Part shown: positions 6,278 through 54,542 of the stretch, in pieces
How positions within the stretch are numbered: position 1 is the stretch's first letter
Layout: the number at the start of each line of letters is the position of its first letter
Origin: a virus
Strand: one strand, 5' to 3'
DNA length: 64,000 bases
IMG/VR virus record: IMGVR_UViG_3300025687_000022
Position numbers and translations under genes: made by a program
The notes under the pieces: generated by a model
The model's database searches: none
What the model saw: the letters and a program-made list of their open reading frames with translations, nothing else
Told to the model about the DNA's origin: nothing

Positions 6278-6793
6278 CTATTGTTTGGTTAGCTCGTACC
6301 CTGCCTTAGCAATTACGATTGCATCTGCTCTGTCAAATGATTCTGGTTTTGGATTACCAGATTTAGTGTATTCAACACTAAAAGACTCTTCTGTTTCTAA
6401 AAGATGCTCTAAAACAACTAATTTTGCTTTTTCGCCTTTTGGAACTTTAATGTCGCAAAGTTTCCGTGCTTGACTCGCACCTATATATTCAGGCTGCATT
6501 TCAAAAATCTCATACACCATCCAAGATACGATACCGTTGAATCTTTGTAATGATGCCATTGTTTTTGCAGATGAGCCTCCAGAATTAAAAAATGTAAAAG
6601 GTTGCTCGATGTAGATTCTATCAAATTTATCATATTGTTCGTAAATGTCAAGAATTTTACTTTTTATATGAATTGACTTAGCAAAAACATCTTTGTATTT
6701 ACGCAGATCTATTGAGTCATAACTGATTAGCTTACCGTTATTTACAATCGCAAAACCAGTTATGCTTGTGCTTATATCTATACCCAAAATCAT
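6278..6793 (-). CDS. RuvC-like Holliday junction resolvase
   Basis: ILGIDIS, IYIEQ and DRADAIVIA acidic RNase-H-fold motifs. Confidence 0.85.
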   Translation of the reverse strand: MILGIDISTSITGFAIVNNGKLISYDSIDLRKYKDVFAKSIHIKSKILDIYEQYDKFDRIYIEQPFTFFNSGGSSAKTMASLQRFNGIVSWMVYEIFEMQPEYIGASQARKLCDIKVPKGEKAKLVVLEHLLETEESFSVEYTKSGNPKPESFDRADAIVIAKAGYELTKQ

Positions 6794-8004
6794 ATATCTA
6801 ACTTTAATTTAAATGTCAAGTCTTCGTCTTCTTTTTTGCGAACAGGATTAGACAAAGTTGCTACGCCAATAAGATTTTGTTTGTCGTCGTAGATAGCTAC
6901 GCGAGAAACATAAACTTGTCGCTCAAAAGAAGCGCTGTAATCAGTATAACTTGAAGACGCAAAATTGTATATTCTTCTTGAATTGTTTTCTAAATAAATC
7001 TGAGAAGAAGTTTGTTCGACTAAACTTTGATTATACTCGATGTAAGTTGGGTTATTGGAATAATTGACTTCTCCGCGTCTAGCATGCGCGAACATCGTCA
7101 TAACTTGAATGTCGTTAGTGCCTTCGAAAGATAAGCGAGAAGAAGCAGTTAAATAAGAAGCACCAGCAGTAGATGTGCTAACATTATCATGCGCTCCTGC
7201 TCCCCAATAAATCCAAGATGGATTTTTTGGTCCCGCGCCAGCTTCCAAAGAGATTGTCTGCGAACTTAATGCCCAAGAGCCAGTTAGCAATATAAATCCT
7301 TCGTTATATAAAACAACACCAGCTACTGAACCAGAGCCAGTAGAACCAACAGGACCAGTTTGTATTAACTCTCCATTTTGTTTTGTATCTTCTAATGTTC
7401 CAATTAGCGAGCCAGTAAAATACCAGTCTAACCTAACAGACCCTGGATTTATTTTCTGTCCGTAGAAAATAGAAGGAATCGATGTTAAATTTATAGTTTG
7501 GTTTGCTTTATCTCCATAAGAAGAAGAAACTTTATAATGCTCGCTGATAGCGCCATAAAAATTTAATCTATTCTTCAGAGCATAAAAATGCGGATAAACA
7601 GGGGTAGTTTGAAAAGTCAATCCTGTGTCTGGATTAGTAGCAGTATTTCTTTGCCCTGCTGTTGCCATGAACTCGCGAGTAATAGACGCAGATAAAGGAT
7701 AGCTGCCAGAAATCACAGTGCCGTAAGCATCTGTTGCTTTTGAACCGCTTAAAGCAAATCCAGAACTTTGTTTATAAGTAAAAGGATAAATAAATGGATT
7801 TGTCCCATCGGCGCGATCAGTATTAATTTCATGCAAACTAATGTGACCAGATGGAACATTATCCGCTTGGGCACTAAACGCGCCAGACTGCGAAGGCTTA
7901 TCGTTGTAGTAGATATTGCTATCAAAAATGAAGAACTCACTTTTTGGGTAAGTTCTCATTGTGTTTAGTATGATGTCATTTTCACCAAACTTTTTAAGGG
8001 ACAT
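6790..8004 (-). CDS. virion (baseplate/tail) structural protein
   Basis: In the tail module; C-terminal VAIYDDKQNLIGVATLSNPVRK is paralogous to 8006..9046; rich in SGS/TGS/SAS. Confidence 0.65.
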   Translation of the reverse strand: MSLKKFGENDIILNTMRTYPKSEFFIFDSNIYYNDKPSQSGAFSAQADNVPSGHISLHEINTDRADGTNPFIYPFTYKQSSGFALSGSKATDAYGTVISGSYPLSASITREFMATAGQRNTATNPDTGLTFQTTPVYPHFYALKNRLNFYGAISEHYKVSSSYGDKANQTINLTSIPSIFYGQKINPGSVRLDWYFTGSLIGTLEDTKQNGELIQTGPVGSTGSGSVAGVVLYNEGFILLTGSWALSSQTISLEAGAGPKNPSWIYWGAGAHDNVSTSTAGASYLTASSRLSFEGTNDIQVMTMFAHARRGEVNYSNNPTYIEYNQSLVEQTSSQIYLENNSRRIYNFASSSYTDYSASFERQVYVSRVAIYDDKQNLIGVATLSNPVRKKEDEDLTFKLKLDI

Positions 8005-8005
8005 T

Positions 8006-9046
8006 TTAGTAGTCCAATCTAACTCGTAGTGTTATCTCGTTTGTTGGGTCTTTGCGTAGCGGTTCTGAAAGTTTAGCAACTGCTAGTAATTCGTTTTGAG
8101 AGCTATAAAGACCGATTGTTGTAATATAAGCAACTGGAGTATCAGTAGCAACGTTTTTAACTCTGATTGTGCTAGCCGATAAATAAGTTGGGTTTGACGA
8201 GTGGTTATATTTATTATGCGGAACGCGGCAGAAATAAATAGTTGAGTTGATTTCTGTTGTGTTGTTAAAGCTAATGTTTTGAACTCTGTGGCGAAGGGCA
8301 TCGCAAGCACCCGTAATTGAAGACGAAACAAAAACCTGAGCAACTGATTTGGTTCCTGCGGACTCTGATAAGAAATCTGTCATAACATCAAACGAAGATG
8401 TAGAAAGAACCGCAATACCTGCCTGATAAAAGACTAGTCCACGAACAACGTTATCAGAAGAATAAAGAAGACCATAATCTCCACCAAACGTATTAGTAGT
8501 TCCACCAGTATCGGAAGCAGAAACATCGGTAAGGACTTTAGTGCCAGCAAAAGGAGTTGCCCAAGAACCAGTGCCCAATGTAATGCTAACGGAACCTTTC
8601 TTAATTTGATCTTTGGTAATTAAGCGAGAGAAGTTGAGGAAGAAAGATTCCTGCATCGCTCCAACTTCATCAAGTGCTAAATCAAGCTCAAATTTACGGA
8701 CAGTGTTGGTCGAGCCAGTATAACCTAAAAGAACCTGAGAGAACTGGTTATACATGTTAATCTTTTTGGCTTCCAAAGTAACACCAGGAGATCCAGAAAG
8801 AGGAGAAGCTTCATCGTATCCAATAGAAATATCAAAAATGTGGTTTGCAGAAGAAGATAAATAAGGATAGTCATAAACAGATTGGAACTGCCCATGAGTA
8901 TAGTTTTTAATGTTATCTTCACTTGGGAATGTTCCATAAGTACCGCTAATAATCGTTCCTGTTAGTGGGATCGACTCGTGAAGTAGCGTTCTTGTTGTCG
9001 TAACGTCTTGAGTGAGATCTAAGATCTCATAGTTTGTAACTGCCAT
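8006..9046 (-). CDS. virion (baseplate/tail) structural protein
   Basis: C-terminal ITTIGLYSSQNELLAVAKLSEPLRK resembles the tail-collar/fibre attachment domain. Confidence 0.65.
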   Translation of the reverse strand: MAVTNYEILDLTQDVTTTRTLLHESIPLTGTIISGTYGTFPSEDNIKNYTHGQFQSVYDYPYLSSSANHIFDISIGYDEASPLSGSPGVTLEAKKINMYNQFSQVLLGYTGSTNTVRKFELDLALDEVGAMQESFFLNFSRLITKDQIKKGSVSITLGTGSWATPFAGTKVLTDVSASDTGGTTNTFGGDYGLLYSSDNVVRGLVFYQAGIAVLSTSSFDVMTDFLSESAGTKSVAQVFVSSSITGACDALRHRVQNISFNNTTEINSTIYFCRVPHNKYNHSSNPTYLSASTIRVKNVATDTPVAYITTIGLYSSQNELLAVAKLSEPLRKDPTNEITLRVRLDY

Positions 9047-9064
9047 TTATATTCTCCAATTCCT

Positions 9065-10072: not shown

Positions 10073-10090
10073 AAGTGTTCCTCTTTTTAT

Positions 10091-10098
10091 TAAATAGT
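10091..10098 (-). promoter_or_regulatory. putative late-promoter motif ACTATTTA
   Basis: Intergenic, directly upstream of SD (AAGAGG) and ATG 10072. Confidence 0.65.
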
Positions 10099-10112
10099 TT
10101 TGCTTTTCTTTA

Positions 10113-13639: not shown

Positions 13640-13640
13640 T

Positions 13641-14303: not shown

Positions 14304-14304
14304 T

Positions 14305-17630: not shown

Positions 17631-20600
17631 CTATCCTTGATCATCTTCTTTATACAGTACATCAGCGCTGATTTTAATTGTCTCTACAAAAGATACATAG
17701 TCATAAGGCCAATTGTACTCTAACTTGTAAGTGTCTTTTGACAAATCATCTTTGTTTTTCTGAGTTTCATTTTTAGCTGCGTTTGTCTGAGAAGACGGAG
17801 TAGAGGAGCCAGCCTGAGATGGTATTAAATCTGCATATTTTGCTTGGCTTCTTTGTTTTACTTTAAAAACCATCCATCGAGTGTTTGAATTATTTATATC
17901 GTCAGCAGTTAGTAATTCATTGTCACCAAGAGTATGAGCAGTAGAAGAAACTGTTTTTGTTATCTTCTTATAGTTTCTTGGTGCCAAGTTCTGCCAAATG
18001 TAATTTAAATCATCTTTATCAAACTTGTATTCAAACTCAAAGAAATACATTACCATTGGATCTGCATCTGGATTATTTAAGAAATCAAATTGAGGTGGTA
18101 GAATGTATTGTTGCATTGCTTCAACTTGTCTTCTGATGGACTCGCCCGCGTAATCAAGGGAGTCTCCCTCTGACGATCCTATTGCGCTTTGCAAGCTAGC
18201 TTCGATTCTTGCTTGATCAATCTCAAAGAATGTTTTTGTTGCGCCACTAGATTCTTCTTGGTAAGGAACTGCAACAATAGCTTCTTTAATTGTTTTGCTT
18301 TCAGCTAACTGACCAAGCTTAACTGAAACATTTTCTTCTGTAAAGTTTATAACGTCAGTAAGCGGCTTCATTGTCTGGAACATATTGTTTCCGTTTCCAG
18401 CAGCATCATTTTTATTGTAGATACTGTTGTTGTCAATAACGTCATAATGCCCGCGTAGCCAATCAGAAGGAATATCGCCAATTTCTAAGAAGATTCCTTT
18501 TGTCTCATCTGGTTCCACCACACCAAACTGATGCCAAATGCCTCGTGGAGCCGAATGAGATGCATAAGTTGGAACCGAGAAAGTTGAATTTGCATCTGTA
18601 ATTGGTCTAACACCTTTGTTGTTGAAGTTAGGCATTGGAGTTTCCATTTTTGGCTGGATAACCCAACGCGAGCCAACATACTCGTCTTCAGATAGTACTT
18701 CGTTGCCAAAGTTATCGGTTCTAACTTTCTGGATTCTTTCAACGCCAAATGATGCAATACTTGCGCTTAATTGCATCGCGTTAGCATTAACGTTTTTGCC
18801 GTCGTAAATTAAATCACCGTATGTTGCAGAGCTACCAGAGAAAGCTATGTTTCCGCTAAGGGTTCCAATCAACTGCGTACCTGTCCAGTTAGTGATGTTT
18901 GGTCCACTTGGGACAGAAGAAGCTGATGGACCTGGATCACATCTCCAATACTTTGTTTTTGCTTCTGAAAGAATCTTTTCAAGATCGTAAGATTCGCCAG
19001 CATTTGGCTCGAAAACAATATCAAGCCAAGCTTCACCGTTGTAATAAGGGGGCGTATAGGACCAGTTAAATCCGTTTAGCGAATCTATTGGGTGAGATGC
19101 TGTAATATAAGATCCAGAAGCTTCTCCTAAATCTGGTCTACCTGCTATCGGAGGACCGAAAGCGCTTGGACGACTGTAAAGAGTGAACGACTCTTGGAAT
19201 TCATCGGCAGAAAGCTGTCTTGGATCCTGTGGTAGTGGATATGTTCTTCTATTAACAAATGTGTTGGCACCTGAGTCATAGAATCTCGCACCGTAAGTGC
19301 TGTACGCAGAGTTGTTGCCTGCCGCGCCAGATTCGCTCGTATAAATTCTACTACCGCTAACAGACCTTCTTAGTTTTAGTCTTGCACCGTAAATGCTCCC
19401 AGATTCAAATCTTAAATCATTTGAAACAACATCAGATTGCAATCTTGTGTATTGAGAATCCTTCAAGAAAAAGTTAGCCATTTCACCAAAGTAGTTAGAA
19501 GCCATTCTGGTGTAAAGATCATCAATCTCGTTTACAGTAAACGAAGCCGTTGCATCTAGCGATGCAGATGGGTGAGGTTCCATATCAAGGAAAGTCAAAC
19601 CAGCAATATGTTTTTCTGGTCGAATAATAGCTTCAAATGGGATTCGTTTCTGCCAAACAGAGCCACCTTGATAATCTGTTGGTCCAGAGCCAGTAATAGT
19701 TGTTAACATCCACTGTGCAGTATCGTCTGTGCTACTAACAGTTCCAAAATGATTTTTGGAAAGTTTGGTTAAAGTTGAGCCGATAGGGTAATCAACAGCC
19801 ATACCAGATTTAATGGTGTTGTAAAGAATGCCTGGGGCGAACAAAGGCTGGACCAATGGTCTAACACCGCCGTCTGTGCCATTGGCAATATTTGCACTAT
19901 TGTTGAAAGCTTGGATTGATTTTCCATAAGAATTTTTAAACTGCTCAACAAGATCAGCGCTTCTTTGTGCAGGATAAAAACCCTTGTAAGGCATTAGTCT
20001 AATCGACGCGCTACAAGCTAATCTAATTTCTTTTGGTGCCAAGCCTGTCTTGTTAGAAATGTTAGCAAATCCTTCCATAAACTCGGCATTTGAATAATCA
20101 TTATAAAAGTTTGTTTGAGAACTATCAATGCCAGTTCCAACGACCTCAAAAGTATCTTTTGTTCTGCCAAGTCCAAATTTTCTATAATCAGAAATGTGTT
20201 CGCTTAATCTAAACTCTGGAACAACAGCGTAACCTTTGCTGACCAAAGAAAGTTCTTCTTTATAAGAATCATAATCATCAAACCACGGTTCAGAAGGATA
20301 AGAAACAAACTCATTTGTTGAACCGCTCTTTTGTATAATGCCCGCATTTGCTGGAGCATCCCAGAAAGCTTCACCAGCAAAACGATCATAGTTATTAAAC
20401 TGAGCAGAAACGCTACCCTTGACAATAGATCCTGTTTCTGGGATTGGAATGCCAGAAGGTGAAACAACAGAACCTGGGGCACCAAGAAGATGCTTTCTTG
20501 AATAAAGGGCGCTTATTGCCCTGTTTCTGATCTTTGTTTGTGTGTTTAAAGACGCTGTTGTGTAGTGGGCGTGTAGATACTCATTTTGCAACTCACCGGC

Positions 20601-42666: not shown

Positions 42667-43829
42667 TATATATCCTTTATAACGTTGCAAATAAATTCTA
42701 TCTCTTCTTCGGTCAATTCGGGGTAATTAGGCACAAAAAATCCTCTAGAATGAATTGCATCGCTTTGAAAATCAGCGAATTCATTATACAAATCAATCCA
42801 AAATGGATGTCTTCCTAAATTTCCAGCACTAAAAATTCTTGTCTCGATACCGTTTTCAACCAAACGACTTACTATTTCTTTTCTATGTTGCGTACTGTTA
42901 GCTAAGGCACCAAAAGAAATAGATACCGGGTACTCAACTCCCCAATCTTGAAACTCAACATAGCCTTGAAGCTTTTTAGCATACAGTAAATGATTTCTAT
43001 TTCTGTTTTTAGATGCCCACTCTGCTTTTTTGATTTGTCTAATTCCCAAAAAAGCCTGCAAGTCTGTTGACCTTAAATTGTATCCGGGTACAAAAAATGT
43101 AAAAGGAGAATGAAAATCGTCAATATTCCTTTCTTTCATCATGTCACTATAAGTTTCCTCATCCAGATCTTTAGCCCAACCGTGACTACGCAACATTAAA
43201 AGCATATCATAAAGTTTCTTATCATTGACGTTTACCATACCACCTTCAATTGTGGAAAGCTGATGTCCAAAATAAAATGAAAAAGAAGACATATCACCGA
43301 TAGTACCAACCATTGTGCCATCACTATATCTAGCCCCAAGTGCTGCACAAGCGTCCTCTAGAAGTACAAAACCATATTTTTCTTTCAGTTTCAACAACCT
43401 TTCTTTATGATGAGGAACACCCAATACTTGTACAAATATAACAGCATCAGGTCTTTCGGTTTCACAAATTTGCTCCAACTGATCCAGATCAATACCAAAA
43501 GTTTTTGGGTCCGCACCACACATAATTGGGTGTAATCCTAGCTGAATAGCTGGTGAAATCGTTGTAACCCATCCAACCGATGGAACAACTATTTTCTTAT
43601 TTGGTATTAGACCACATTGAACTGCTGTGGCTATCATTAAAAGATTAGCCGAAGACCCAGAATTATTGAATACTGAATATTTTGTACCGATATATTCAGC
43701 CCAATCTTTTTCTACCTGTAAAGTCAAATCTCCTTTTGTTAGTCTAGGATAACTTTTTAGCCAATTGCACAGCGCATCGACATCTTCATCATTAATTGTT
43801 TCTTTAGCCAACGGATATCTTATTTTCAT
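42666..43829 (-). CDS. PLP-dependent NDP-4-keto-6-deoxyhexose 3-dehydratase (ColD/RfbH-like, DegT family)
   Basis: NSGSSANLL, EDAC and GYNLR; SFYFGHQLSTIEGG has His at the position of the usual Schiff-base Lys. Confidence 0.8.
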   Translation of the reverse strand: MKIRYPLAKETINDEDVDALCNWLKSYPRLTKGDLTLQVEKDWAEYIGTKYSVFNNSGSSANLLMIATAVQCGLIPNKKIVVPSVGWVTTISPAIQLGLHPIMCGADPKTFGIDLDQLEQICETERPDAVIFVQVLGVPHHKERLLKLKEKYGFVLLEDACAALGARYSDGTMVGTIGDMSSFSFYFGHQLSTIEGGMVNVNDKKLYDMLLMLRSHGWAKDLDEETYSDMMKERNIDDFHSPFTFFVPGYNLRSTDLQAFLGIRQIKKAEWASKNRNRNHLLYAKKLQGYVEFQDWGVEYPVSISFGALANSTQHRKEIVSRLVENGIETRIFSAGNLGRHPFWIDLYNEFADFQSDAIHSRGFFVPNYPELTEEEIEFICNVIKDI

Positions 43830-44353
43830 TTAATCTCCTTTAAAAATTTAGATTTTTTGTCTCGTTCTGATAAAACCGGCAATGCCTTTATTAAAGGCCA
43901 TTTAATGTCTAATATTGGTTCGTCCCATCTTAGAGAAAATTGGTTTTCTGGAGAAACATAGTTTTCTGACCATTTATAATAGAACAAGCAATCTTCAGTT
44001 AAACAGTAGTGTCCATTCAAGAAATTTTTAGGAATAAAAACAGCAAAATTGCTATCTTCGTCCATCTCTATCTCAAATTTTTGTAAATATTGTTCACTTT
44101 GTTTATCATAATTTACAATAGCTAAATATATTTTTCCTTTAAGGCAGTATATCAATTTATCATTTATTGAATCTCCGTGCAAGCCCCTTAATACATTTTT
44201 TTTTGATTTTGTCAATTTATCAATTTTAAAATCTGGAAATTGGTTTACATCAAATAAATTTGTGATATTTCCTCTATTGTCTGAGAAGTTTTCTAAATAT
44301 ATTTTATACACTCCATTTAATGGAAGCTCTTCTTTTACAAACAACATTTTCAT
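43826..44353 (-). CDS. rmlC: NDP-4-keto-6-deoxysugar 3,5-epimerase (RmlC-like)
   Basis: DNRG, NVLRGLH, NGHYCL, WDEP..DIKWP and LSERD. Confidence 0.85.
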   Translation of the reverse strand: MKMLFVKEELPLNGVYKIYLENFSDNRGNITNLFDVNQFPDFKIDKLTKSKKNVLRGLHGDSINDKLIYCLKGKIYLAIVNYDKQSEQYLQKFEIEMDEDSNFAVFIPKNFLNGHYCLTEDCLFYYKWSENYVSPENQFSLRWDEPILDIKWPLIKALPVLSERDKKSKFLKEIK

Positions 44354-44378
44354 ACAATATTGTACTCCACAAATCAGT

Positions 44379-45167
44379 TCATTTGTTATTATTTTGCATA
44401 TTATTATATGCTTTTATCATTCGATCTGCAACTATATTTAAATATAGATTTTTGGCTTGTTGCGCGACTAAATCATAATAGTACAAATTTTCAGGGTTTT
44501 TCATACCATCCATTTCCATATTGTTATAAGATCCCCCAAATCCTGATGCTCCATCGGTGGGATTCCGACTGAAAAAATCGGGGACTGTTCTCCACAAATC
44601 TATCCCGTAAGACTCATACATTAAGATATGCAATAATGTTTTCCAATTATCTCCATTACATTGCCAACCGTAATTTTGTAAAACTTCAATACATCTTACT
44701 GAAAAGCATGGCAAACTAACACCTTCATTGTGTTTCCATACTTCCATGATTTGCGGTTCTCTCCAGCGACCTTTATAAAGCTCTACTCTTGGACGGCGGG
44801 GACCAACAAAACAATATTCATCTTTTATTGATAAGATATCATCAATAAAACCTTTTTTTATAAATGTGAAATCATCAGCACAAAGTAGAACAAATGTTGA
44901 TTTTTGGTTTCTTTGTGAAAACAAATAAAAATGATCTAAATGAAAACCATGACGACCTTCGCCTCTTGACCAAACAAAAGTTTTAACACTAAAAGGAAAT
45001 TTATTAAAATATTCTTGAGGAGGGCGTAAATCATCATCAGAATCATATTTTATCAAAACCTCACAATTTTCCGCATTTCCTCCACATTGCTGTAAACTTG
45101 TCAGTAGTTGATCTATATTGCTATCTTTATTACCTTTTACTCTTGAAGTCAATATCAATGTTAACAC
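44379..45167 (-). CDS. putative GT-A fold glycosyltransferase
   Basis: TLILTSR start strand, EVLIKYDSDD and VLLCADDF (DxD-like); inside the sugar cassette. Confidence 0.55.
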   Translation of the reverse strand: MLTLILTSRVKGNKDSNIDQLLTSLQQCGGNAENCEVLIKYDSDDDLRPPQEYFNKFPFSVKTFVWSRGEGRHGFHLDHFYLFSQRNQKSTFVLLCADDFTFIKKGFIDDILSIKDEYCFVGPRRPRVELYKGRWREPQIMEVWKHNEGVSLPCFSVRCIEVLQNYGWQCNGDNWKTLLHILMYESYGIDLWRTVPDFFSRNPTDGASGFGGSYNNMEMDGMKNPENLYYYDLVAQQAKNLYLNIVADRMIKAYNNMQNNNK

Positions 45168-45177
45168 AAAATACCTC

Positions 45178-45948
45178 TCAAATTTCTAAATAAAATTTCT
45201 TCATATCTTCTAGATTATCAAAAACACTGTTTTTGTCATAGTAGTTGTTATTCAAATTACCAACCAGATTGTATAGAACAATCATATCGTAAACATCATA
45301 AGTTGTTTTAGCGTTTCTCCCAGCCCAATCCCACAAAGTAATTTCTCTGCATTCTATTGTTGGTTCCCCCATGTGACCAAGATAAATTGACATATAGTTG
45401 TCTGCTACATGGTGTAGGAAATGAGGATGAAATATTTTTTCTCCAAACAACTCATAAGTTTTTCTGTCCATTGTTGGGAATTTCATAATATAATTTCTAT
45501 TATGTTTTCTTTCGGCTTTGGTTATTGGGTGTATTACACTTGGCGGAACTAATTCGGCTGGTAATTTATAGTAATGCCCGTTATTTTTAACCGTAACTGA
45601 TAAGCTAGTAACTTTATATATTCTATCATAATATAAAGGAGATTGTAAGAAATTAATAACAGAAAACAAATTTTTTGACGGCAAATAATCATCTACCAAA
45701 ACACAAAGATAATCTCCATTTGCCTGAGAAGCAAGAAAATTAATTGGGCGTATTGATCCTTCGTTGTCAGTATCTTTAAAATATTTAATATTTTTACTAT
45801 CAATACCAGAATTGGTAGAAGAAACTAAAATTTCATAATCAAAACCCAAGCTGTCCATACGATTAATAGTTAATATTGTTTTATCTAAATATTTTTCGTG
45901 TGACCTGTTGGTTGGTATCAAAAAAGAAATATCTTTTTTACTTTTCAT
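45178..45948 (-). CDS. putative GT2-like glycosyltransferase
   Basis: ISFLIPTNR, YEILV and ANGDYLCVLVDD. Confidence 0.6.
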   Translation of the reverse strand: MKSKKDISFLIPTNRSHEKYLDKTILTINRMDSLGFDYEILVSSTNSGIDSKNIKYFKDTDNEGSIRPINFLASQANGDYLCVLVDDYLPSKNLFSVINFLQSPLYYDRIYKVTSLSVTVKNNGHYYKLPAELVPPSVIHPITKAERKHNRNYIMKFPTMDRKTYELFGEKIFHPHFLHHVADNYMSIYLGHMGEPTIECREITLWDWAGRNAKTTYDVYDMIVLYNLVGNLNNNYYDKNSVFDNLEDMKKFYLEI

Positions 45949-46477
45949 TATAATAATCACCCCACTCAACTAAAATGGTACTTTTTCCATCTGTCCTGTG
46001 ATATGCTTTATGATATGCTGGAAAAATATCTTCTGGCTCATCTAGTCTTATAACTTCTACTGTTGTCAACATATTTCTAAATGCATCGGTAAAGTCTCCA
46101 GTGTGTTGTATTTGCGGATTTAAAGGATTTTCAGACCCAATGCCAACCCGAATAATTGCTTTTGGAGCATATTCTCCGTGTGTATAAATTGAGTATTTGT
46201 CCAAATGATTAACCAATTGATTTACTGCTAAAAGAAGAAAATTCCAACGCGGGTATATACTAATCGGAACAGTTCCAGCTATGCTTAAGCCATTTGTGAT
46301 TCCCATTTGCATTTCTTCATTAACAGGCATTTCCAACAATTTATTTCTTGGAACTTCTTTCAAAGTATTTGTCATTGCCGTTCCTTTATATTCAACCGCT
46401 TGACCCAAAAATAAAGTATTATTTTGTTCTCCCAAATAAGACATAGCACGGCTTAATTCATCAAAATATTTTCCCAT
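45938..46477 (-). CDS. ThDP-dependent enzyme beta subunit (E1-beta/transketolase pyrimidine-binding domain only)
   Basis: LLEMPVNEEMQMG, AVNQLVN and QHT; lacks the transketolase C-terminal domain. Confidence 0.8.
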   Translation of the reverse strand: MGKYFDELSRAMSYLGEQNNTLFLGQAVEYKGTAMTNTLKEVPRNKLLEMPVNEEMQMGITNGLSIAGTVPISIYPRWNFLLLAVNQLVNHLDKYSIYTHGEYAPKAIIRVGIGSENPLNPQIQHTGDFTDAFRNMLTTVEVIRLDEPEDIFPAYHKAYHRTDGKSTILVEWGDYYNEK

Positions 46478-46489
46478 ATTGTTTTCTCC

Positions 46490-47101
46490 TTAAAATTGAA
46501 CTCTGATTCCAGCACCAGCATGAGGATATTTGTCTAATTTATATTTATAATAAGTAACATAATCGTCATTAATACCTTCATAAGTTAGCTTTTCCATATT
46601 CCATGTTGCTCTTGTGTCGGTGCAAACTGATTTTCCATTATCTTCAATTATAAAGTGTATCGGCAATTTGTGATTACGAGCATATTTTATACACTCATGG
46701 GCAGCGCCAGTCTCGGAAGTCATTTCTCCCATAAAACAATATACTTTATTTTTTCCGCCTCGACGTTTAATATCAATGGCTATGCCTAATGAAACAGACA
46801 ATTGTCCAGTTACAATTCCAGAACAAAGAATTTTGTGTTCTTTAAAACTTAAAGATATCGATCTCCCTTCTAAGATCGCTTCCTTCAATTGTTTTGGTGG
46901 AACACCTTTTAAAAGACACTGATAATGGCTTCTCCAAGAACATAAAACCCAATCTTCTTTTCCTATTTTATGTTTTTTAAAAACATCAATTATTTGTTCT
47001 TCATTACCATTATATAAATGAACAGGAGCTTTAATCATGGCTGAATTAAAACAATCTGCTATATCATTTTCGAATTCTATCAATTCTTCTTTTGTTAACA
47101 T
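46490..47101 (-). CDS. ThDP-dependent enzyme alpha subunit (E1-alpha-like)
   Basis: PVHLYNGNEE, WRSHY, GIVTGQ and a GE-x(n)-EDN variant of the GDG...NN motif. Confidence 0.8.
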   Translation of the reverse strand: MLTKEELIEFENDIADCFNSAMIKAPVHLYNGNEEQIIDVFKKHKIGKEDWVLCSWRSHYQCLLKGVPPKQLKEAILEGRSISLSFKEHKILCSGIVTGQLSVSLGIAIDIKRRGGKNKVYCFMGEMTSETGAAHECIKYARNHKLPIHFIIEDNGKSVCTDTRATWNMEKLTYEGINDDYVTYYKYKLDKYPHAGAGIRVQF

Positions 47102-48616
47102 TTAATCACCTAATATTTTCCTCTTTAATTTATGTTCGCACATTTTCACAATTCCATCGTGGGTTTCTTGACCGAATTTTTGCTTAATGTAACTTAGGTA
47201 TTTTGGATTTTGATAATACTCGTTAAAAGCATTATCTCTAAATTTTACTACTTCTGAAGAAGTAATATATTTTGTACTTAAAGGAAGTATATCATAGGAA
47301 TGCTGTGAATATCCACTATAAGTTTCTGGTAAGGGTAAATTATTTTTGATAGCATCCAAATATAGTCGTGAACCGGGGTATGCCATAGAACAATAAAAAT
47401 TGGCAAATTCACAATTTAAGTCTTTTGCTAGTTCTAAAGTTTCTCTCATTGTGCTGTGATCATCTTCCGGTAGACCAAAAATAAAATTCCCTATTACATT
47501 AATTCCAGAATCTTGTATTTCTTTAACTAAATCAGAAATCTTTACATCTGTAAACTTTCCTTTAACAACATCTTTTCTAACTACACCGTTACCAGACTCG
47601 ATACCAAGAGCTAACCATTCTATACCAGCTTTCTTTAGAGTGTCTAGGTAAGATTTTTTAACTGTATCAATTCTAGCATATGCCCAAATATTAAAATCAT
47701 ATTTTCTGTCTATTATTAGATTACACAATTTTAAAAAATGATCTTGATTTAAAACAAACATTTCGTCAGCAATTTTGATATTTCTAATCCCCATTTGATG
47801 TATCTTATCAAATTCATTTATAGCATATTCTGGATTCCAAAATCTAAATTTGTTTCTTTCATAATTCCAGTTCTCAACATTATTATTTCCAAACGGGGCG
47901 TTAATGCAACAAAAACTACATCTAAATGGACAACCCAAACTAGTATAAAGAGAGGCAAAAGGCATTGTTTGATTTTTGTTAGACATCCCATGCCAATTTG
48001 AAGTTCTATATTTTTCCATTGGCAACAAATCCCAAGCCATACCCGGAAGTTCTGTTTGCATCTCTTCTTGTGTTATTAATGGGGCAGGTTTAGTAAAACA
48101 AATTTTATCTCCATCCCTATACCATAAACCGGGAACCTTACTTAGCTGATAAGGATCCGATAAATTATCAACTTCCATTAATGCTGTTAATGTTCTGGGT
48201 CCTTCTCCCTGACAAACAAAATCAGTTTTTTCGTCTTGCATTGTTTTTCTAGAAACAGCAGACGGATAAAGTCCTGTTATTAGTACTTTTCTTTCTGGAT
48301 TGTTTTGTTTTAATATTTCTAAGCAATTGTGGACACCTAGCATATTCTGAGCCGATGCTGATGGCTGCTGTCCATAGACAACAAACACTACTAACTTTGG
48401 ATCAAAATCTTCTATTTTTAAATAACTTTCGACTGGACTTAGCTGCTCAGCCTCACAATCTAATATGGCTACATTTTCATATCCTTTCGAGCGGACATGA
48501 TTTGCCAACAAAGCAGCCCATATTGGTGGCTCTATAGCTGAGTATTTTTTACTCAGACTCTGATAAATTTGTTTTGAAGCATTCGGATGCACAAATAGAA
48601 TGTCCAATTTATTCAT
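47102..48616 (-). CDS. cobalamin-binding radical SAM enzyme
   Basis: N-terminal B12-binding-like domain (EPPIW, GEGP), GCPFRCSFC, LGIESG and FIFGLP; start refined to 48616. Confidence 0.88.
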   Translation of the reverse strand: MNKLDILFVHPNASKQIYQSLSKKYSAIEPPIWAALLANHVRSKGYENVAILDCEAEQLSPVESYLKIEDFDPKLVVFVVYGQQPSASAQNMLGVHNCLEILKQNNPERKVLITGLYPSAVSRKTMQDEKTDFVCQGEGPRTLTALMEVDNLSDPYQLSKVPGLWYRDGDKICFTKPAPLITQEEMQTELPGMAWDLLPMEKYRTSNWHGMSNKNQTMPFASLYTSLGCPFRCSFCCINAPFGNNNVENWNYERNKFRFWNPEYAINEFDKIHQMGIRNIKIADEMFVLNQDHFLKLCNLIIDRKYDFNIWAYARIDTVKKSYLDTLKKAGIEWLALGIESGNGVVRKDVVKGKFTDVKISDLVKEIQDSGINVIGNFIFGLPEDDHSTMRETLELAKDLNCEFANFYCSMAYPGSRLYLDAIKNNLPLPETYSGYSQHSYDILPLSTKYITSSEVVKFRDNAFNEYYQNPKYLSYIKQKFGQETHDGIVKMCEHKLKRKILGD

Positions 48617-48627
48617 TTTTTTATTCC

Positions 48628-49563
48628 TTAATAATTCGCATACCACGGTGATTCTATAATAGAATAAGCTTTTATCAATTGTATAATACCATCATCCAAA
48701 TCATATTTGCAGTCAAATCCTTTATTATAAATCTTCTGACTACTAACTTCATAATCACGAACATCTGGATCAGTATTTATTTCCGCTTTTATAATTTGTA
48801 AAGGTATGTGCTCTTGAATTTTTTTAGCTAGCTGTAGCTTATTCATATTTATTCCATCGTGACCCACATTATATGTCTCATTTTTACAATTATCCCAATT
48901 ATCAATTACAAATTTAAAAGATCTACATGCATCTTGTAAGTGCAAATAATTTCTCATAAATTCACATTCGTATAAAACTAATACGCCTTCTCTCAGTGCC
49001 TTAAGAACAAAATTATTTACCAATAGATCTGTTCTCATTCTAGAACCGGGTCCGAATACAGTTGCAAATCTAAAAGTGACATGATTTTCTATTTCTCGAT
49101 AAGCCTTTTCTGCCTGAACTTTTGTTGTTCCATATAGAGAAACTGGATTAAGAGGAGATTCTTCTGTACACATGGAGCCATCTTTGGAGGTTCCATAACC
49201 AGAATTAGTGCAAGGATAAATCACCATTTGATCTTTTGATTTGTTATCGGCAATCCATTGATTTACCTCATAATTTATTTCTCTTGCTCCTCGTTTGTCT
49301 TTTTCGCACAACGGGAAGCCGACTAAAGCTGCCAAGGGTATAATAACATCTGCTTGTGCCATATGCTTTCGTAAAAAATTTATATTTCTTACATCCCCTT
49401 TTTCAAAATTAAAATTTGAATCAACTGTATATCTTAACAGAGACGTAGCATCATACATAAGATTATCTATACAAGTAACTTGATGACCGTCTCTTAGTAA
49501 ATGTCCCGTCAATTCGCTACCGATATATCCAGCGCCACCTGTAATCAATATTTTTTTACTCAT
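48628..49563 (-). CDS. NAD-dependent NDP-sugar epimerase/dehydratase/reductase (extended SDR)
   Basis: ITGGAGYIG, YGTTK (YxxxK) and RFATVFG. Confidence 0.9.
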   Translation of the reverse strand: MSKKILITGGAGYIGSELTGHLLRDGHQVTCIDNLMYDATSLLRYTVDSNFNFEKGDVRNINFLRKHMAQADVIIPLAALVGFPLCEKDKRGAREINYEVNQWIADNKSKDQMVIYPCTNSGYGTSKDGSMCTEESPLNPVSLYGTTKVQAEKAYREIENHVTFRFATVFGPGSRMRTDLLVNNFVLKALREGVLVLYECEFMRNYLHLQDACRSFKFVIDNWDNCKNETYNVGHDGINMNKLQLAKKIQEHIPLQIIKAEINTDPDVRDYEVSSQKIYNKGFDCKYDLDDGIIQLIKAYSIIESPWYANY

Positions 49564-49865
49564 TAAAACTCCAATCTTCCAATTAAAATGTCTTTAAACA
49601 TAATCCAATCACACAATTTTGCTTTTATGGGGTGACTAAACGCGGCTGGTTTATTTTTTTCAAAAAAGTAATGCCCAGACCAAGCAAAAGGGTATACTAC
49701 AAAAGGTGCTAAAAACAACAATAACCAAAGTTTAAGGTATACAACCATAGCAATAAATATTATTGTTGCAATCTGTCCTAGTATGTGTGTTCTTCTGGTC
49801 CATCTATTTTGATGTAAGGTTAGATAATATTCATAATATTCACTAAGACTCATATCTTTATTCAT
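49563..49865 (-). CDS. DUF962 / Mpo1-like membrane protein
   Basis: YLTLHQ...RRTHILG and AWSGHYFFEKNKPA; start refined to 49865. Confidence 0.8.
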   Translation of the reverse strand: MNKDMSLSEYYEYYLTLHQNRWTRRTHILGQIATIIFIAMVVYLKLWLLLFLAPFVVYPFAWSGHYFFEKNKPAAFSHPIKAKLCDWIMFKDILIGRLEF

Positions 49866-50283
49866 TCCAACTAATCTCCCAATCTTTGAATTCTGCTGCC
49901 AGACAATCGATTTTATAATCTTTCCTGCCACCTACAATTTCTTGAATTTTATTTTTAGCAGTATTTCGAATTCCATTTAATCCGTGCGTCAACTCTAGAT
50001 TGTTGCCGTCTTTAATACCTTTACGGTAATTCGACTCGTTATGCCAAATGTGTAAATTCATTTGTGAAAGTACTACGATAGCTCTAATCGTTTTGGCATC
50101 AACTACCATATGTCCTTCTGAAGATTGTTTTTCTTCTAAAATCATCTGGATATCATACAAGATATCTGAAATTTCTTGTGCGTATTCATCTTTATGCTCT
50201 GAAATAAAGACTTCTTTTAACTGTGCGATACTAAGTCTGTCAACTAGTTCCGACAGTGTTGGGAGATATTTCCTATTTGTCAT
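49858..50283 (-). CDS. hypothetical helical protein, first gene under the cassette promoter
   Basis: ELVDRLSI...NLHIWHNE...NGIRN..KNKI pattern reminiscent of DUF4254/DUF6165-type proteins. Confidence 0.55.
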   Translation of the reverse strand: MTNRKYLPTLSELVDRLSIAQLKEVFISEHKDEYAQEISDILYDIQMILEEKQSSEGHMVVDAKTIRAIVVLSQMNLHIWHNESNYRKGIKDGNNLELTHGLNGIRNTAKNKIQEIVGGRKDYKIDCLAAEFKDWEISWNE

Positions 50284-50314
50284 TTGGGTGTTCCTTTTTT
50301 AATAGAATAAACAT

Positions 50315-50343: not shown

Positions 50344-50372
50344 TATAATAATCATTATTCTTGTTATCACAT

Positions 50373-52004
50373 TTATTTTGTATTTAAAAATTGTGAAAAA
50401 TAGTTTTTATAAAGTTCATAGTTTTTTCCAAAAATATGACCATTTTTAAAAAATATCTGCGCTTCTTCTTTACGTTGCTCCAGATTATTTTGCGATTGCG
50501 ATCTGCCGCCTTCCATATATAAACCAACAACTTGTTCAACTTTAGAGAATATGCAGTTCTCGTTAACAGCACGAAGCCATAAATCCCAATCATCTGAAAA
50601 ATCTAGATTTACTTCATCAAAAAAACCAACTTTTTCATGAAGTCTTTTCCTCCACATTGGCATTGGCCCCGGTAAACATTTTATCATATTTTCTTTTGAA
50701 AATGGTAAAATGGAATGTTCAGATAATTTTGTTGATTTGGTGTTTTCTACTGTTTCGTTTTTTTTGTCCGTAACTAAGCAATCCCCATACACCAACTCTA
50801 TTTTATCACTGGATGTTAATCTATTATATAGAATTTCTATACCATCAATACTTTTTCTATCATCTATCATAGCCCAAACAACAAAAGGGCAATTACTCTT
50901 CATGATTGCTATATTGTGTCCAATTGTGGGCTTAAAATTTTTACTATATTGATAATAATGTATATTATTAAATTTTTTCATGTATTTTTTAACTATTTCT
51001 TTTTCTCTGCCGGGTGAAGCAGAATCAACTAGAATTAGTTCACACTGATCGAAAATTGTTTGTTTGGTTATGTTATCTAAATAATCTTCTATGTATTCTT
51101 CTGCTTTATGAAATGTTGTTATAATGCTAATCTTTTTATCAGTTTTTGTGATTCTAGGTTTATCTATTTCCTCTAATACTAAATTTAATATATAATCTCT
51201 TCTATCGTTCATATAATCTATTAATTTTTCGCCTTTTAGCTTAAACCACGGTTCATGACTAGCACCAACCATTTGATTTAAAATAACACCGACTCCCATC
51301 ATTCTAGCTTCACACACAATTCTAGATAATGTTTCCGGTGATTTAGGGAAAAAAATCAATTTTTTGTTATTACTAAGTTTATGTAAAAAATTGATATAAT
51401 TTGAGTCTTCTATTAAATCATATTCTAAATTATTTTTATTACAATAATCAATAGCACCTACTGTGTTTTTATGGGGTATTTGACTTTTCAAAATAGAAAC
51501 TCTATCTTTTTTTTGGTTTTGAGATAAAGCTTTCAATTTAGTTAATACTTCCAAAGACCACAAATTTCCATTTACGGATAAAACATTGTCTAACTCAAGA
51601 TTTTTTGTGATTATATTTTTGTGATAATTTGTTTGGCAAAAGACTTTTTTAGCATTTTTGTAAAAGAAATAATTTCTAAAATTATCATTTGAAGCTTTGA
51701 AGTCTTTAAAAAATATTGGATTTCTTGTATTTAAATATTTATGATCATGTTCGTATATTATGTATTCGCACTCATAGGTAATTTTTTCTCTAACATCATA
51801 TGAAAGATTACAAAAATTAGATATTATATAAAAACAATCCAGATTGTTTTGAATTATTTTCTTAGTAACCAAATGAGATTGAAAACATTCAACTTTCCTA
51901 CCACTATGTCTTAGAAGTTTAATTAATTCATGGTCGTTTAATTCGCCACCACCAACAATGTGGTTTACGAAAAAATCAGCTATATAAATTATTTTTCTAT
52001 TCAT
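50373..52004 (-). CDS. two-domain glycosyltransferase (GT-B/GT4-like N-terminus + GT2 C-terminus)
   Basis: GGGE and PETLSRIVCEARMMG (GT4 EX7E); then ISIITTF, ILVDSAS, IDD and DDWDLWLR (GT2). Confidence 0.85.
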   Translation of the reverse strand: MNRKIIYIADFFVNHIVGGGELNDHELIKLLRHSGRKVECFQSHLVTKKIIQNNLDCFYIISNFCNLSYDVREKITYECEYIIYEHDHKYLNTRNPIFFKDFKASNDNFRNYFFYKNAKKVFCQTNYHKNIITKNLELDNVLSVNGNLWSLEVLTKLKALSQNQKKDRVSILKSQIPHKNTVGAIDYCNKNNLEYDLIEDSNYINFLHKLSNNKKLIFFPKSPETLSRIVCEARMMGVGVILNQMVGASHEPWFKLKGEKLIDYMNDRRDYILNLVLEEIDKPRITKTDKKISIITTFHKAEEYIEDYLDNITKQTIFDQCELILVDSASPGREKEIVKKYMKKFNNIHYYQYSKNFKPTIGHNIAIMKSNCPFVVWAMIDDRKSIDGIEILYNRLTSSDKIELVYGDCLVTDKKNETVENTKSTKLSEHSILPFSKENMIKCLPGPMPMWRKRLHEKVGFFDEVNLDFSDDWDLWLRAVNENCIFSKVEQVVGLYMEGGRSQSQNNLEQRKEEAQIFFKNGHIFGKNYELYKNYFSQFLNTK

Positions 52005-53259
52005 ATTCTTTTATAATATCCGATATTTCATTAAACCAATCATTGACATTTTCTTGATTATTATAAAATAAAATAATAAACCTCTCATACATCTTTTCGG
52101 CAGAGAAAGTCTCGTGTAGGCGCTTTACATTTTGCTCCAAAGCAATCATTTGTGTACCACGAGTCTCTTCGTTAGTCATTTGTTCATAACAAAGTCTCAT
52201 TTGTTGCTTTGCAGACTGCTCACGCGGATAAGCCCACATAGAGTCTTTGATCAAAACATTCTCCCAAACAACCTCCTGCTGAATTGGCTGTAAGTCAAAT
52301 GCGACGTTATAAAAATGTTGCTTACCTTGCTCATCAACCAAAAAATCTAACTGCCCTGACCAGCCTGTAGCGACCACAGGAAGCCCAGAATAGGCTGCTT
52401 CAAAGATTGGAAGACCAAAACCCTCACCATGAGGTAAAGCAAGGAAAGCATCTACAGAAGAATCTTTATAAAGCGCATGCATTTCTTTATCGGTCATATC
52501 GCCATGAAGAAGATAAACTTTGCATTTGTGTTCTGGAAGGTTTGCTAAAAACGATTTAAGATCTTTAAGAATCTTGTTTCTATCCATTAAGCTATTTTTA
52601 ACAATGTTGGTCTTAAGAATTAAGCCAACGTCTTCGTTATCTGCGAATTCCTCAACAAACCACTTAAGAGTATTTGGAAGGTTTTTGCGAGGTCCAAACT
52701 GAGCAACAGATAGAAAATTAAAGCTGGTGGAAAGATTTAGATTTAAATCTGGAAGGTTTTCAAAAACTTTAACTGGATAATTCACAGCCTCAACTGGAGT
52801 TTGAAGTCTGTACTGAAATTCTTGCTGACCGTTGGTTGCAATAGCCACAGTGTCTTCAAAGATATTTTTAGAATGGTTAGAGACAACAATAATTTTATCT
52901 ACAACCTCATTTCCTTTTTGAAGCCAGACGGGAGCCACTTTAGTTGTTTCAATTCCAGCCGTGTAGCCAATATTGATAGGAGCCAGTTTTTCCCATTCGT
53001 TTGGAATCGTAACTTGAACTGACATATCAAAAGTGCCACCGCTTTGAATATAAGCAATGGTCTTTTCAATCGTCATATCGATCCATACTCGCTCTTCATC
53101 CATGTCAGTCAGCCAAGACGTGGCACCCCATTGAAGAGGCTGAATGAAAACTTCAAATAAGTCCTCTCTTGAGCGAAGAGAGCGTAGCGCAAATCTTGCT
53201 TGCTCTCCATAGCCAGAACGAGTTAGTAGTGGTCCTTTTAGTAAAACCTTTTTTCTCAC
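51997..53259 (-). CDS. GT4-family glycosyltransferase
   Basis: RSGYG, PRKN and HGEGFGLPIFEAAYSGLPVV; GTG start after GGAGG. Confidence 0.9.
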   Translation of the reverse strand: MRKKVLLKGPLLTRSGYGEQARFALRSLRSREDLFEVFIQPLQWGATSWLTDMDEERVWIDMTIEKTIAYIQSGGTFDMSVQVTIPNEWEKLAPINIGYTAGIETTKVAPVWLQKGNEVVDKIIVVSNHSKNIFEDTVAIATNGQQEFQYRLQTPVEAVNYPVKVFENLPDLNLNLSTSFNFLSVAQFGPRKNLPNTLKWFVEEFADNEDVGLILKTNIVKNSLMDRNKILKDLKSFLANLPEHKCKVYLLHGDMTDKEMHALYKDSSVDAFLALPHGEGFGLPIFEAAYSGLPVVATGWSGQLDFLVDEQGKQHFYNVAFDLQPIQQEVVWENVLIKDSMWAYPREQSAKQQMRLCYEQMTNEETRGTQMIALEQNVKRLHETFSAEKMYERFIILFYNNQENVNDWFNEISDIIKEYE

Positions 53260-54542
53260 GCTACCTCCAGTAAGTGCCAAGTTTGATAGTTCTTTCTATT
53301 TTCCCAAGAACCATGCTTCTCGATTATTTCATCCATTATCCGTACCCATTCGCTTTCATAGTTATCAAAGTTGTAATTTTCACGAACATGCATCTGACCA
53401 GAAATAGACATTTTCTTATAAGCACGGTCGCTTGTATACATAGCTTCGCTTAAAGCATTGATAAAGTCTTGTTTGGCGATTCTATCCTCGTAAATATAAG
53501 GAACGCTTAAAGAACCAATAATAGACTTAGATGCAGGCTCTATGCCGATACCAAACCAATCTTTACCATTTGTAACTTGCTCTTGCAATCCACCAGTCAT
53601 GTTAACAATAATTGGAGTTCCACAAGACAGCGATTCAAGCGTAGATAACCCAAAGCCTTCTGCATCTGAAATATTAATCGTAAAATCGGCTGCATTATAA
53701 ATATTCGCAAGGTCTTCTGGTGCTACCTTATTTGTTGAAATAAGAACCTGACCATCATCAAGACCAAGATGCTCAATAATGTGTGGCAGATCTTGACCAT
53801 GTGGGTCACGAGGATCAGTGTGCATTAGTAACATCGCTTTATCATGACCAACATAATCTAGAAAGCTTTTAAACCACCAGATAAGTGTACCGCTTTGTTT
53901 ACGACGGGCATTTCTGTTATTCCAAAAGAAAATAGTTTTTTCTTTATTTTTGAACTTTCTACTTGATTCAACAGTTAGTTTGGTTCTTGTATCTTTTACT
54001 TGTTGCTTTAGTTCATCAGTTTTATACTTATAAAAAACATTGGAATTTACAGCATGTGGAAGATAACGCGAGCTTACATCTGGTGAAACTTCCTTAACAA
54101 TGTCATGGGTCACTTTTGAGATGCAAACAACCTCATCGGTTGAGTTATAAAACTCAGCGTTGTAGTGAGGAGCAGGAAAGTTATCCCATACATGATAATA
54201 AACCATAGGAACACAAGCCCTAATCTCATTTTCAATTTCCCAAAGCCAAGTATAAAAACGAGGATCAGTCATAAACCAAAGAACATCGGGGCGCTCTTTC
54301 TGCAGAATTGACCGAATAATCTCGTGATTACCATAACCATCAACTGGAAAGATTCGCCAATCATCACCATAAGGTTCGACTTTCTGCGGCTGATAGCTCT
54401 GATGCTTCATAGCCCCGCCCAAGCAAACGAAAGAATATCGTCCAGTCTTGAGCAGGGCTTCAATCATATATTTTGTTTGCGTACCAACACCAGACGGTGT
54501 TAGTGGATGGTCCGATAAGACCAAAATCTTTTTCTTTTGCAT
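53256..54542 (-). CDS. GT4-family glycosyltransferase
   Basis: PSGVG, NRNARRK and AEGFGLSTLESLSCGTPII. Confidence 0.9.
   Translation of the reverse strand: MQKKKILVLSDHPLTPSGVGTQTKYMIEALLKTGRYSFVCLGGAMKHQSYQPQKVEPYGDDWRIFPVDGYGNHEIIRSILQKERPDVLWFMTDPRFYTWLWEIENEIRACVPMVYYHVWDNFPAPHYNAEFYNSTDEVVCISKVTHDIVKEVSPDVSSRYLPHAVNSNVFYKYKTDELKQQVKDTRTKLTVESSRKFKNKEKTIFFWNNRNARRKQSGTLIWWFKSFLDYVGHDKAMLLMHTDPRDPHGQDLPHIIEHLGLDDGQVLISTNKVAPEDLANIYNAADFTINISDAEGFGLSTLESLSCGTPIIVNMTGGLQEQVTNGKDWFGIGIEPASKSIIGSLSVPYIYEDRIAKQDFINALSEAMYTSDRAYKKMSISGQMHVRENYNFDNYESEWVRIMDEIIEKHGSWENRKNYQTWHLLEVA

Follow-up and report, generated by a model that had tools for sequence, protein, structure and literature searches.

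The window analysed here is a stretch of 64,000 nucleotides from an uncultured virus, IMG/VR record IMGVR_UViG_3300025687_000022. Several of its predicted tail and baseplate proteins carry the tripeptide [ST][GA]S (Ser or Thr, Gly or Ala, Ser) in large excess, and the same window encodes two adjacent family-4 glycosyltransferases, GT4-A and GT4-B, next to a sugar cassette. O-glycosylation of virion proteins by this pair, at sites of the form hydrophobic-[ST]-[GA]-S-hydrophobic, appears to be the best explanation, and one that is somewhat probable. More tentatively, the motif could be a genuine sequon for O-glycosylation, and no earlier one would then have been defined in tailed phages. It would be read by a conserved, soluble GT4 pair in abundant aquatic myoviruses, and a swappable cassette would give a strain-specific coat, a kind of phage serotype. 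An initial annotation of the window had already proposed virion O-glycosylation. The enrichment, the structural context, the co-distribution with the GT4 pair, and the variable cassette all agree with that proposal, whereas the attachment of a glycan, the action of the GT4 enzymes on protein, and the division of labour between priming and elongation are kept here as predictions.

The motif-rich proteins and two neighbours that serve as controls are as follows (aa, amino acids).

p404, 6790..8004, minus strand: motif-rich baseplate or fibre-module protein, 404 aa, 9 [ST][GA]S sites
p346, 8006..9046, minus strand: paralog-like neighbour of p404, 346 aa, 5 sites
p3027, 17631..26714, minus strand: giant baseplate/tail protein, 38 sites, ConA-like lectin domain at residues 199-366
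p505, 26704..28221, minus strand: beta-sandwich chain (CBM-like and FN3/Ig-like), 505 aa, 11 sites
gp6-like baseplate wedge protein, 28221..30017, minus strand: internal control, 598 aa, 0 motifs
p2182, 30452..37000, minus strand: giant neighbour, non-enriched contrast control

For each protein, the number of motifs was compared with the number expected from composition-preserving shuffles of that protein, and counts are given below as observed vs expected. The proteins p404 (9 vs 1.5), p505 (11 vs 2.2), and p3027 (38 vs 8.1) hold four to six times the chance number (p≤0.0005 for each). The hand counts of the initial annotation (9, 11, and more than 30) were exact for all three. It did not list p346, which is also enriched (5 vs 1.2, p=0.006). 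The motif had been called nearly absent from the gp6-like wedge and the enzymes, and this is confirmed; the wedge has none (0 vs 0.9) and the enzymes of the window have 0-1 each, which is chance level. The 2182-aa protein, for which about two motifs had been counted, has four (4 vs 2.8) and is at chance.

The excess persists when residues are shuffled within windows of 20, 40, and 80 residues. Local richness in Ser and Gly is no explanation because the excess is unchanged by the 20-residue shuffles, and local composition bias can be set aside. The order of the residues matters. SGS occurs 22 times, GSS 6 times, and SSG 8 times; TGS occurs 15 times and its permutations 1-7 times. At the third position Ser is far above Thr (SGS 22 vs SGT 4, SAS 15 vs SAT 1). 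The 63 sites are encoded by 46 different 9-mers and both serine codon families are used, which rules out DNA repeats as the source of the motif. Since the codons vary in this way, it is the peptide on which selection acts. The initial annotation had argued that the motifs are not DNA repeats and had named composition correction as a check; both points have held.

Proteome-wide tests were run on two complete relatives, G1 and G2. In both, the enriched set has an observed/expected ratio of about 4.6 and the remaining proteome has ratios of 1.09 and 1.04. The enriched set consists of the orthologs of the four window proteins together with the tail sheath, the major capsid protein (MCP), the head-tail adaptor, and a baseplate protein. 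The 16 sheath sites are confined to residues 155-629, a stretch that in essence precedes the conserved core (about 622-982), and the 5 MCP sites to residues 115-279, in an insertion between two matches to the HK97 core. The terminase has no motif. The motif marks virion proteins, specifically their variable, non-core parts, and these parts are probably outward-facing.

Homologs of these proteins indicate what is kept over time. All 79 homologs of p505 (50-68% identity) are enriched, with a mean of 11.6 motifs (standard deviation 1.8) vs 2.0. In this family the motif occurs in 51 alignment columns, of which 4 are occupied in at least 90% of the sequences and 41 in fewer than half. Residues within the motif are more conserved than other S, T, G, and A residues (0.78 vs 0.55, p=2e-4). 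The 39 homologs of p404 have a mean of 6.9 vs 1.3, in 52 columns, one of which is occupied in at least 90%. Thus, in both families, selection keeps the density of the motif while its positions turn over. This resembles the pattern of glycan-shield sequons in animal viruses and would be unlike that of a fixed structural element. Orthologs of p3027 are also enriched (34 vs 8.9 and 37 vs 8.3), as is the p346 ortholog in G1 (9 vs 1.4); those of p2182 have no motif at all (0 vs 2.1 and 0 vs 3.7).

Homologs of p346 occur in Microcystis phage Mel-JY01, Flavobacterium phage immuto, Rhodothermus phage RM378, and LR756508, a 484-kb uncultured phage. The C-terminal part of p404 is common to p346 and to several paralogs in Mel-JY01. 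In the latter phage, five consecutive genes (172489-181435) encode the p404/p346 C-terminal domain, with motif enrichment at P<0.001 in all but one. From its sequences, this run looks like a baseplate or fibre family with a common anchor and varied N-terminal parts.

The motif itself could be defined more closely with a pool of 370 sites from five phage lineages, in protein sets that were picked by the motif. SGS, TGS, SAS, and TAS are mostly over-represented 3-8 times, with the same picture in each lineage, and the near-variants SGT, TGT, SGN, GGS, NGS, SNS, and SDS are mostly near chance. Flanking residues are hydrophobic at 51-52% of sites (background 34%) and charged at 5-8% (background 18%). 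The motif is therefore better written as hydrophobic-[ST]-[GA]-S-hydrophobic. When all tripeptides were scanned across whole proteomes, SGS or TGS ranked 1-7 in every phage with the GT4 pair and about 1600-1900 in T4 and Ma-LMM01. The signature of a repeated domain was considered and rejected. The 30-residue windows that flank the sites are no more alike than control windows (similarity of -25.7 vs -26.0 ± 0.45), and no internal repeats were found in p3027.

AlphaFold 2 models of moderate confidence were used for structural context, with pLDDT (predicted local distance difference test) values of 75.5 for p505 and 72.5 for p404. In these two models, by raw count, about 12 of the 20 sites fall at strand-loop junctions or hairpin turns, and the rest fall in longer loops. 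None is inside a regular strand or helix. In p404, for example, the site at 197 is in a hairpin turn, that at 224 precedes a strand, that at 241 follows one, and that at 286 is where a strand begins. The initial annotation had expected surface loops; in terms of secondary structure, the predicted strand ends, turns, and loops would fit this. The p505 model has Foldseek matches to CBM-like and FN3/Ig-like beta-sandwiches. No fold in the PDB was matched by the p404 model. Residues 199-366 of p3027 match Laminin_G_3 (E=1.7e-11), a ConA-like lectin domain, and the sites of this protein are spread along residues 1-2750.

If the GT4 pair reads the motif, then the two should occur together. The initial annotation had suggested a comparison across related phages, and the excess does follow the pair. 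It was judged by the number of proteins at P<0.01 in each proteome.

Mel-JY01: GT4 pair present, 13 proteins at P<0.01 (94 vs 15.8)
immuto: GT4 pair present, 10 proteins at P<0.01 (115 vs 26.2)
RM378: GT4 pair present, 6 proteins at P<0.01 (31 vs 6.3)
T4 and Ma-LMM01: GT4 pair absent, 0 proteins at P<0.01
LR756508: GT4-A-like gene only, 0 proteins at P<0.01
S-PM2, HTVC008M, and P-SSM2: GT4 pair absent, 1-2 proteins each, marginal, giant proteins at or below 2.2x

A focal excess is present in all five proteomes that have the pair, G1, G2, Mel-JY01, immuto, and RM378. Of the six proteomes that lack the pair, three contain no protein that reaches P<0.01, and the other three contain one or two, all marginal. 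Matched orthologs show the same difference. Sheath proteins have 32 vs 10.7 motifs with the pair and 11 vs 8.6 without it, and MCPs have 17 vs 6.0 and 4 vs 3.8, respectively. The terminase is at or below chance in both groups. LR756508 serves as a natural contrast since it is a relative that carries only GT4-A. It has homologs of the sheath, capsid, terminase, p404, and p346, and no separate gene for GT4-B was found in it. One of its two sheath copies carries a single site, and the other copy and the adaptor carry none. No relative without the pair keeps the motif.

Two further observations were made in these phages. LR756508 encodes two tandem sheath paralogs of 824 aa each (202463-208426), neither of which has an excess. 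The densest case observed is the 'tail spike protein' of immuto (97658-100819, 1053 aa), with 53 sites vs 12.1; it may contain repeats. The additional enriched proteins of the cultured phages have no assigned family in Pfam or PHROGs.

The genes for the putative glycosylation enzymes and their neighbours are located as follows.

GT4-A, 53256..54542, minus strand: soluble family-4 glycosyltransferase, E-x7-E kept, core gene of the clade
GT4-B, 51997..53280, minus strand: second soluble GT4, E-x7-E kept, always adjoins GT4-A
543-aa protein with a C-terminal GT2 domain, 50373..52004, minus strand: directly downstream of GT4-B, PF00535 at residues 293-438
second GT2, 45178..45969, minus strand: inside the sugar cassette, by Pfam
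variable NDP-sugar (nucleoside diphosphate sugar) cassette, 40892..50283, minus strand: by Pfam and NCBIfam matches
backbone PD-(D/E)XK nuclease, 228-aa protein, and PIN-PhoH, 54550..57612, minus strand: by Pfam, adjoins the GT4 pair

Both enzymes belong to the GT4 family by PF00534, with 46.4 bits for GT4-A and 32.1 bits for GT4-B at a cut-off of 26.4. The E-x7-E element is present in each by pairwise alignment (EGFGLSTLE in GT4-A and EGFGLPIFE in GT4-B), and the two are only distant relatives, 21% identical over the C-terminal domain. GT4-A was found in 10 of 10 long relatives at 56-75% identity, and GT4-B was adjacent to it in all 10. The pair is as conserved as the structural genes of these relatives. 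GT4-A is also present in Mel-JY01, immuto, RM378, and LR756508, and GT4-B in the first three of these. The pair is adjacent and beside a PD-(D/E)XK nuclease in immuto and Mel-JY01, with the gene order PD-(D/E)XK, GT4-A, GT4-B as in the window, and a more diverged pair is found in RM378. In G1 and G2 the backbone genes are conserved with these neighbours as well. When the G1 genes of 120 aa or more were compared, no enzyme genes other than GT4-A and GT4-B occurred in every motif-positive phage and were missing from T4 and from the cyanophage and pelagiphage controls. No additional cultured lineage came out of searches that used the two immuto enzymes as queries.

In Mel-JY01, GT4-A (83441-84932) is annotated as two open reading frames of 190 and 302 aa despite the strong motif excess in that phage. 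A frameshift, an error in the sequence, or a real split of the gene could each account for this. Some metagenomic relatives have a single protein of about 660 aa in which GT4-B and a GT2 domain are fused, and G009 has a 702-aa open frame (156659-157864). The fusion mirrors the order of GT4-B and then GT2 in the window, which suggests that these two act together.

The initial annotation had claimed five glycosyltransferase genes with six domains. Pfam identifies four genes, two GT4 and two GT2; a fifth gene and a sixth domain were not confirmed. The NDP-sugar pathway that it placed in the same segment is supported by Pfam and NCBIfam matches, and the cassette beside the conserved GT4 pair does vary between relatives, as was claimed. 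Five cassette genes were found in G1 and two, weakly, in G2, so the cassette differs between close relatives while the GT4 pair stays. A homolog of the 543-aa GT2-domain protein is 36% identical in G1 and none was found in G2. Separate genes for an HldE-like heptose-7-phosphate kinase and a heptose-1-phosphate adenylyltransferase (41546-42690, minus strand), with a HAD phosphatase adjoining, are present in G1 and not in G2. These predicted functions suggest that the phage makes an ADP-heptose-type donor. The glycosyltransferases have no transmembrane-like segments, and all cassette proteins are soluble except an Mpo1-like protein. The Pfam and NCBIfam scans of the cassette annotated no flippase, polymerase, or priming transferase.

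Soluble, phage-encoded glycosyltransferases and a supply of nucleotide sugars are thus both present, with four such genes and an NDP-sugar pathway. The likeliest mechanism would run as follows. GT4-A and GT4-B, soluble and cytoplasmic, would recognize the strand-loop motif on new or folded virion proteins and would transfer a sugar from a nucleotide-sugar donor to Ser/Thr hydroxyls. The variable cassette would supply unusual donor sugars, and the extra GT2 enzymes could lengthen or diversify the glycan. Released virions would then bear a sugar coat, specific to the strain, on the baseplate, fibres, sheath surface, and capsid insertion domains, where it may serve in shielding, adhesion, or stability. 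A cytoplasmic acceptor fits better than a lipid-linked envelope glycan because the GT4 enzymes are soluble and no export machinery was annotated.

A number of observations weigh against glycosylation of the virion by the GT4 pair. No chemical evidence for a glycan on these virions was found, and the literature gave none for immuto, Mel-JY01, or RM378. In NCBIfam, GT4-A and GT4-B match generic GT4 models only, and no known protein O-glycosyltransferase family above cut-off. The phages that bear the pair share structural homologs and may represent one deep clade in which motif and enzymes could simply have been passed down together. The only natural contrast is LR756508, and there a weak excess persists in two baseplate proteins (3 vs 0.7 and 4 vs 1.3). 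RM378, a weaker case, has the pair and yet an unenriched sheath (1 vs 1.1), and its remaining proteome is at a ratio of 1.6. Isolated enriched proteins occur without the pair in P-SSM2 (18953-20746, 597 aa, 20 vs 5.3) and S-PM2 (179513-181216, 567 aa, 8 vs 1.6), where the excess could come from Ser-rich repeats or another system. The choice of proteins for the 370-site pool by the motif itself should also be counted here, as should the few near-invariant sites (the four p505 columns), which a structural element would show.

Such an element is one alternative. The motif could serve as a strand cap or a tight turn that the beta-sandwich decoration domains of this clade favour, and the GT4 pair could have an unrelated task, for example remodelling of the host envelope glycan. 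Gly and Ser are common in turns, and the modelled positions at strand ends and hairpin turns, the nearly invariant sites (four in p505 and one in p404), and a co-occurrence with the enzymes that could reflect shared ancestry would all be accommodated. We consider this rather unlikely. Most sites turn over at a held density, their flanks are dissimilar, and the motif spans a lectin domain, beta-sandwich chains, and non-core regions of sheath and capsid. No motif excess is seen in the sheath and MCP orthologs of T4, the cyanophages, and LR756508, and turn geometry alone hardly accounts for a third position that is strictly Ser and not Thr, Asn, or Ala. It is also possible that something other than a glycosyltransferase reads the motif, through phosphorylation or acylation, through docking of an assembly chaperone, or through paired hydroxyls that form an adhesive surface for host polysaccharide. 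That a short motif is under selection says nothing about its reader, and the lectin-like and CBM-like domains of the motif-rich proteins suggest glycan binding. Only the GT4 pair has the right phyletic pattern, however; no gene of 120 aa or more for a kinase, an acyltransferase, or another modifying enzyme is distributed in this way, and a purely adhesive role leaves the missing excess in the LR756508 orthologs unexplained. A reader of this kind seems decidedly improbable.

The GT4 pair and the cassette could instead modify phage DNA or the host lipopolysaccharide or capsule, with the motif excess as an unrelated compositional quirk. The pair does adjoin a PD-(D/E)XK nuclease in the window, immuto, and Mel-JY01, and a role in changing host surfaces has been suggested for the sugar clusters of marine cyanophages such as P-SSM2. 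DNA is unlikely to be the target, since no glycosylated base is reported for immuto and a hydroxymethylase is missing from four of five genomes. The digest of immuto DNA gave three canonical nucleosides and fdPreQ1, and the paper mentions no glycosylated base (PMC10516641). No hydroxymethylase of the thymidylate synthase type (PF00303) was found in four of the five pair-bearing genomes tested, namely G001, G002, Mel-JY01, and RM378. The same two results rule out glycosylation of the hydroxymethylcytosine type, as performed by the T4 alpha- and beta-gt enzymes, and they give no support to modification of DNA, which the initial annotation had listed as an outcome that would refute its proposal. 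A compositional quirk is excluded by the local shuffles and the scan of all tripeptides. For the host envelope, the lack of any annotated flippase, polymerase, or priming transferase in the cassette counts against this explanation, as does the presence of the pair in all 10 long relatives, a strictness that is unusual for an accessory host-modifying function. Taken as a whole, it is very improbable indeed.

If O-glycosylation by the GT4 pair is true, phage glycosylation could be predicted from sequence through a short motif and a conserved enzyme pair of widespread freshwater and marine myoviruses. It would explain the large sugar-synthesis islands in many aquatic phages and would add a new layer of phage surface diversity, relevant to adsorption, grazing, decay in water, and host defence. 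The idea is directly testable, as cultures exist of three phages that bear this signature, immuto, Mel-JY01, and RM378.

The window is composed of a tail/baseplate module and an adjoining sugar island, and every large open reading frame is on the minus strand. In the direction of transcription, it starts with PIN-PhoH, the 228-aa protein, the PD-(D/E)XK nuclease, GT4-A, GT4-B, and the GT2-domain protein. The sugar cassette follows, with an SDR epimerase/dehydratase, a B12-radical SAM protein, a split ThDP (thiamine diphosphate) enzyme, the second GT2, an RmlC-like epimerase, an RfbH/DegT-like enzyme, the HldE-like kinase and adenylyltransferase, and HAD and cupin proteins. It also encodes a 262-aa protein, the small Mpo1-like membrane protein, and a 141-aa protein. 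The baseplate/tail module then contains a VanY-domain protein, the 2182-aa protein, gp25-like and gp6-like wedge proteins, p505, p3027, and a series of proteins without a family. The gp6-like wedge matched phrog_219 and phrog_6 (baseplate wedge) in PHROGs. No significant Pfam or PHROG family was found for p2182, and most of the structural proteins had none in these scans.

Two proteins have weak matches. The first, of 374 aa, lies at the start of the baseplate module (38003-39127, minus strand), and its C-terminal part matches a VanY-type D-Ala-D-Ala carboxypeptidase domain (E=3.2e-5, slightly short of the Pfam cut-off); it may act as a cell-wall hydrolase of the tail where T4 has the gp5 lysozyme. 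The 228-aa protein (55354-56040, minus strand) resembles an anthrax lethal factor-type metalloprotease domain (E=2.8e-4, below cut-off).

The source phage is an uncultured, T4-like marine myovirus. It has almost no relatives among deposited phage genomes and hundreds among marine viral contigs. When 50,697 phage records were searched by tblastn, no match to p505 and one weak match to p404 were found. Relatives of p404 in marine contigs were found with an alignment of five orthologs; a locus search with the single p404 sequence found none. Core genes are common to the source phage, RM378, immuto, and Mel-JY01, and its placement near the 'Far-T4' phages described by Roux et al. (2015; PMC4360716) is suggested on this basis. 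The core proteins of G1 have better BLAST E-values to immuto, Mel-JY01, and LR756508 than to T4 or cyanophages.

A few known systems resemble the one proposed here. A broad search of the literature found no phage sequon. Mycobacteriophage virions are glycosylated by phage-encoded glycosyltransferases, according to Freeman et al. (2023) as cited in PMC12582341 and PMC12894461. In both cases phage enzymes would act in the cytoplasm on the phage's own structural proteins and give a glycan-coated virion. The mycobacteriophages are siphoviruses of Actinobacteria with different enzymes, whereas the present system consists of a GT4 pair in marine myoviruses and is known from sequence alone. Freeman and colleagues reportedly defined no short sequon; here a defined motif is found across many baseplate, fibre, sheath, and capsid proteins.

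The Aah and TibC enzymes of the AIDA-I and TibA autotransporters are soluble, cytoplasmic O-glycosyltransferases that modify many Ser/Thr residues of a surface protein rich in beta structure. In the case of Aah, the sites on such adhesins have a strand-loop-strand motif (PMC3835316), which is a precedent for recognition of this kind of context. The window has a further likeness in its HldE-like heptose kinase and adenylyltransferase domains. Unlike Aah, for which no sequence consensus was found, the enzymes here are GT4 with a sharply defined tripeptide, and no cassette protein matched the Aah/TibC family in Pfam or NCBIfam. GtfA and GtfB are a GT4-type pair that primes the serine-rich repeat adhesins of Gram-positive bacteria, and one partner is reportedly non-catalytic. 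They also are two adjacent proteins of the GT-B fold, with Ser-x-Ser-type acceptors such as SAS repeats. Their substrate is a long, low-complexity repeat, whereas the sites here are single and scattered and both proteins have E-x7-E. No NCBIfam match to GtfA/GtfB was found, and a weak, generic SdgA match was far below cut-off.

Capsid glycosylation in chlorovirus PBCV-1 likewise involves soluble, virus-encoded glycosyltransferases and non-canonical acceptor sites. The PBCV-1 enzyme B736L is among the solved sequences closest to GT4-A (3oy2, E=3.7e-6), a likeness at the level of the generic GT4 fold. PBCV-1 differs in that it is a eukaryotic giant virus with N-linked glycans. Glycosylation by phage-encoded enzymes has thus already been reported for the mycobacteriophages; what would be new here, if true, is a short motif together with a conserved GT4 pair.

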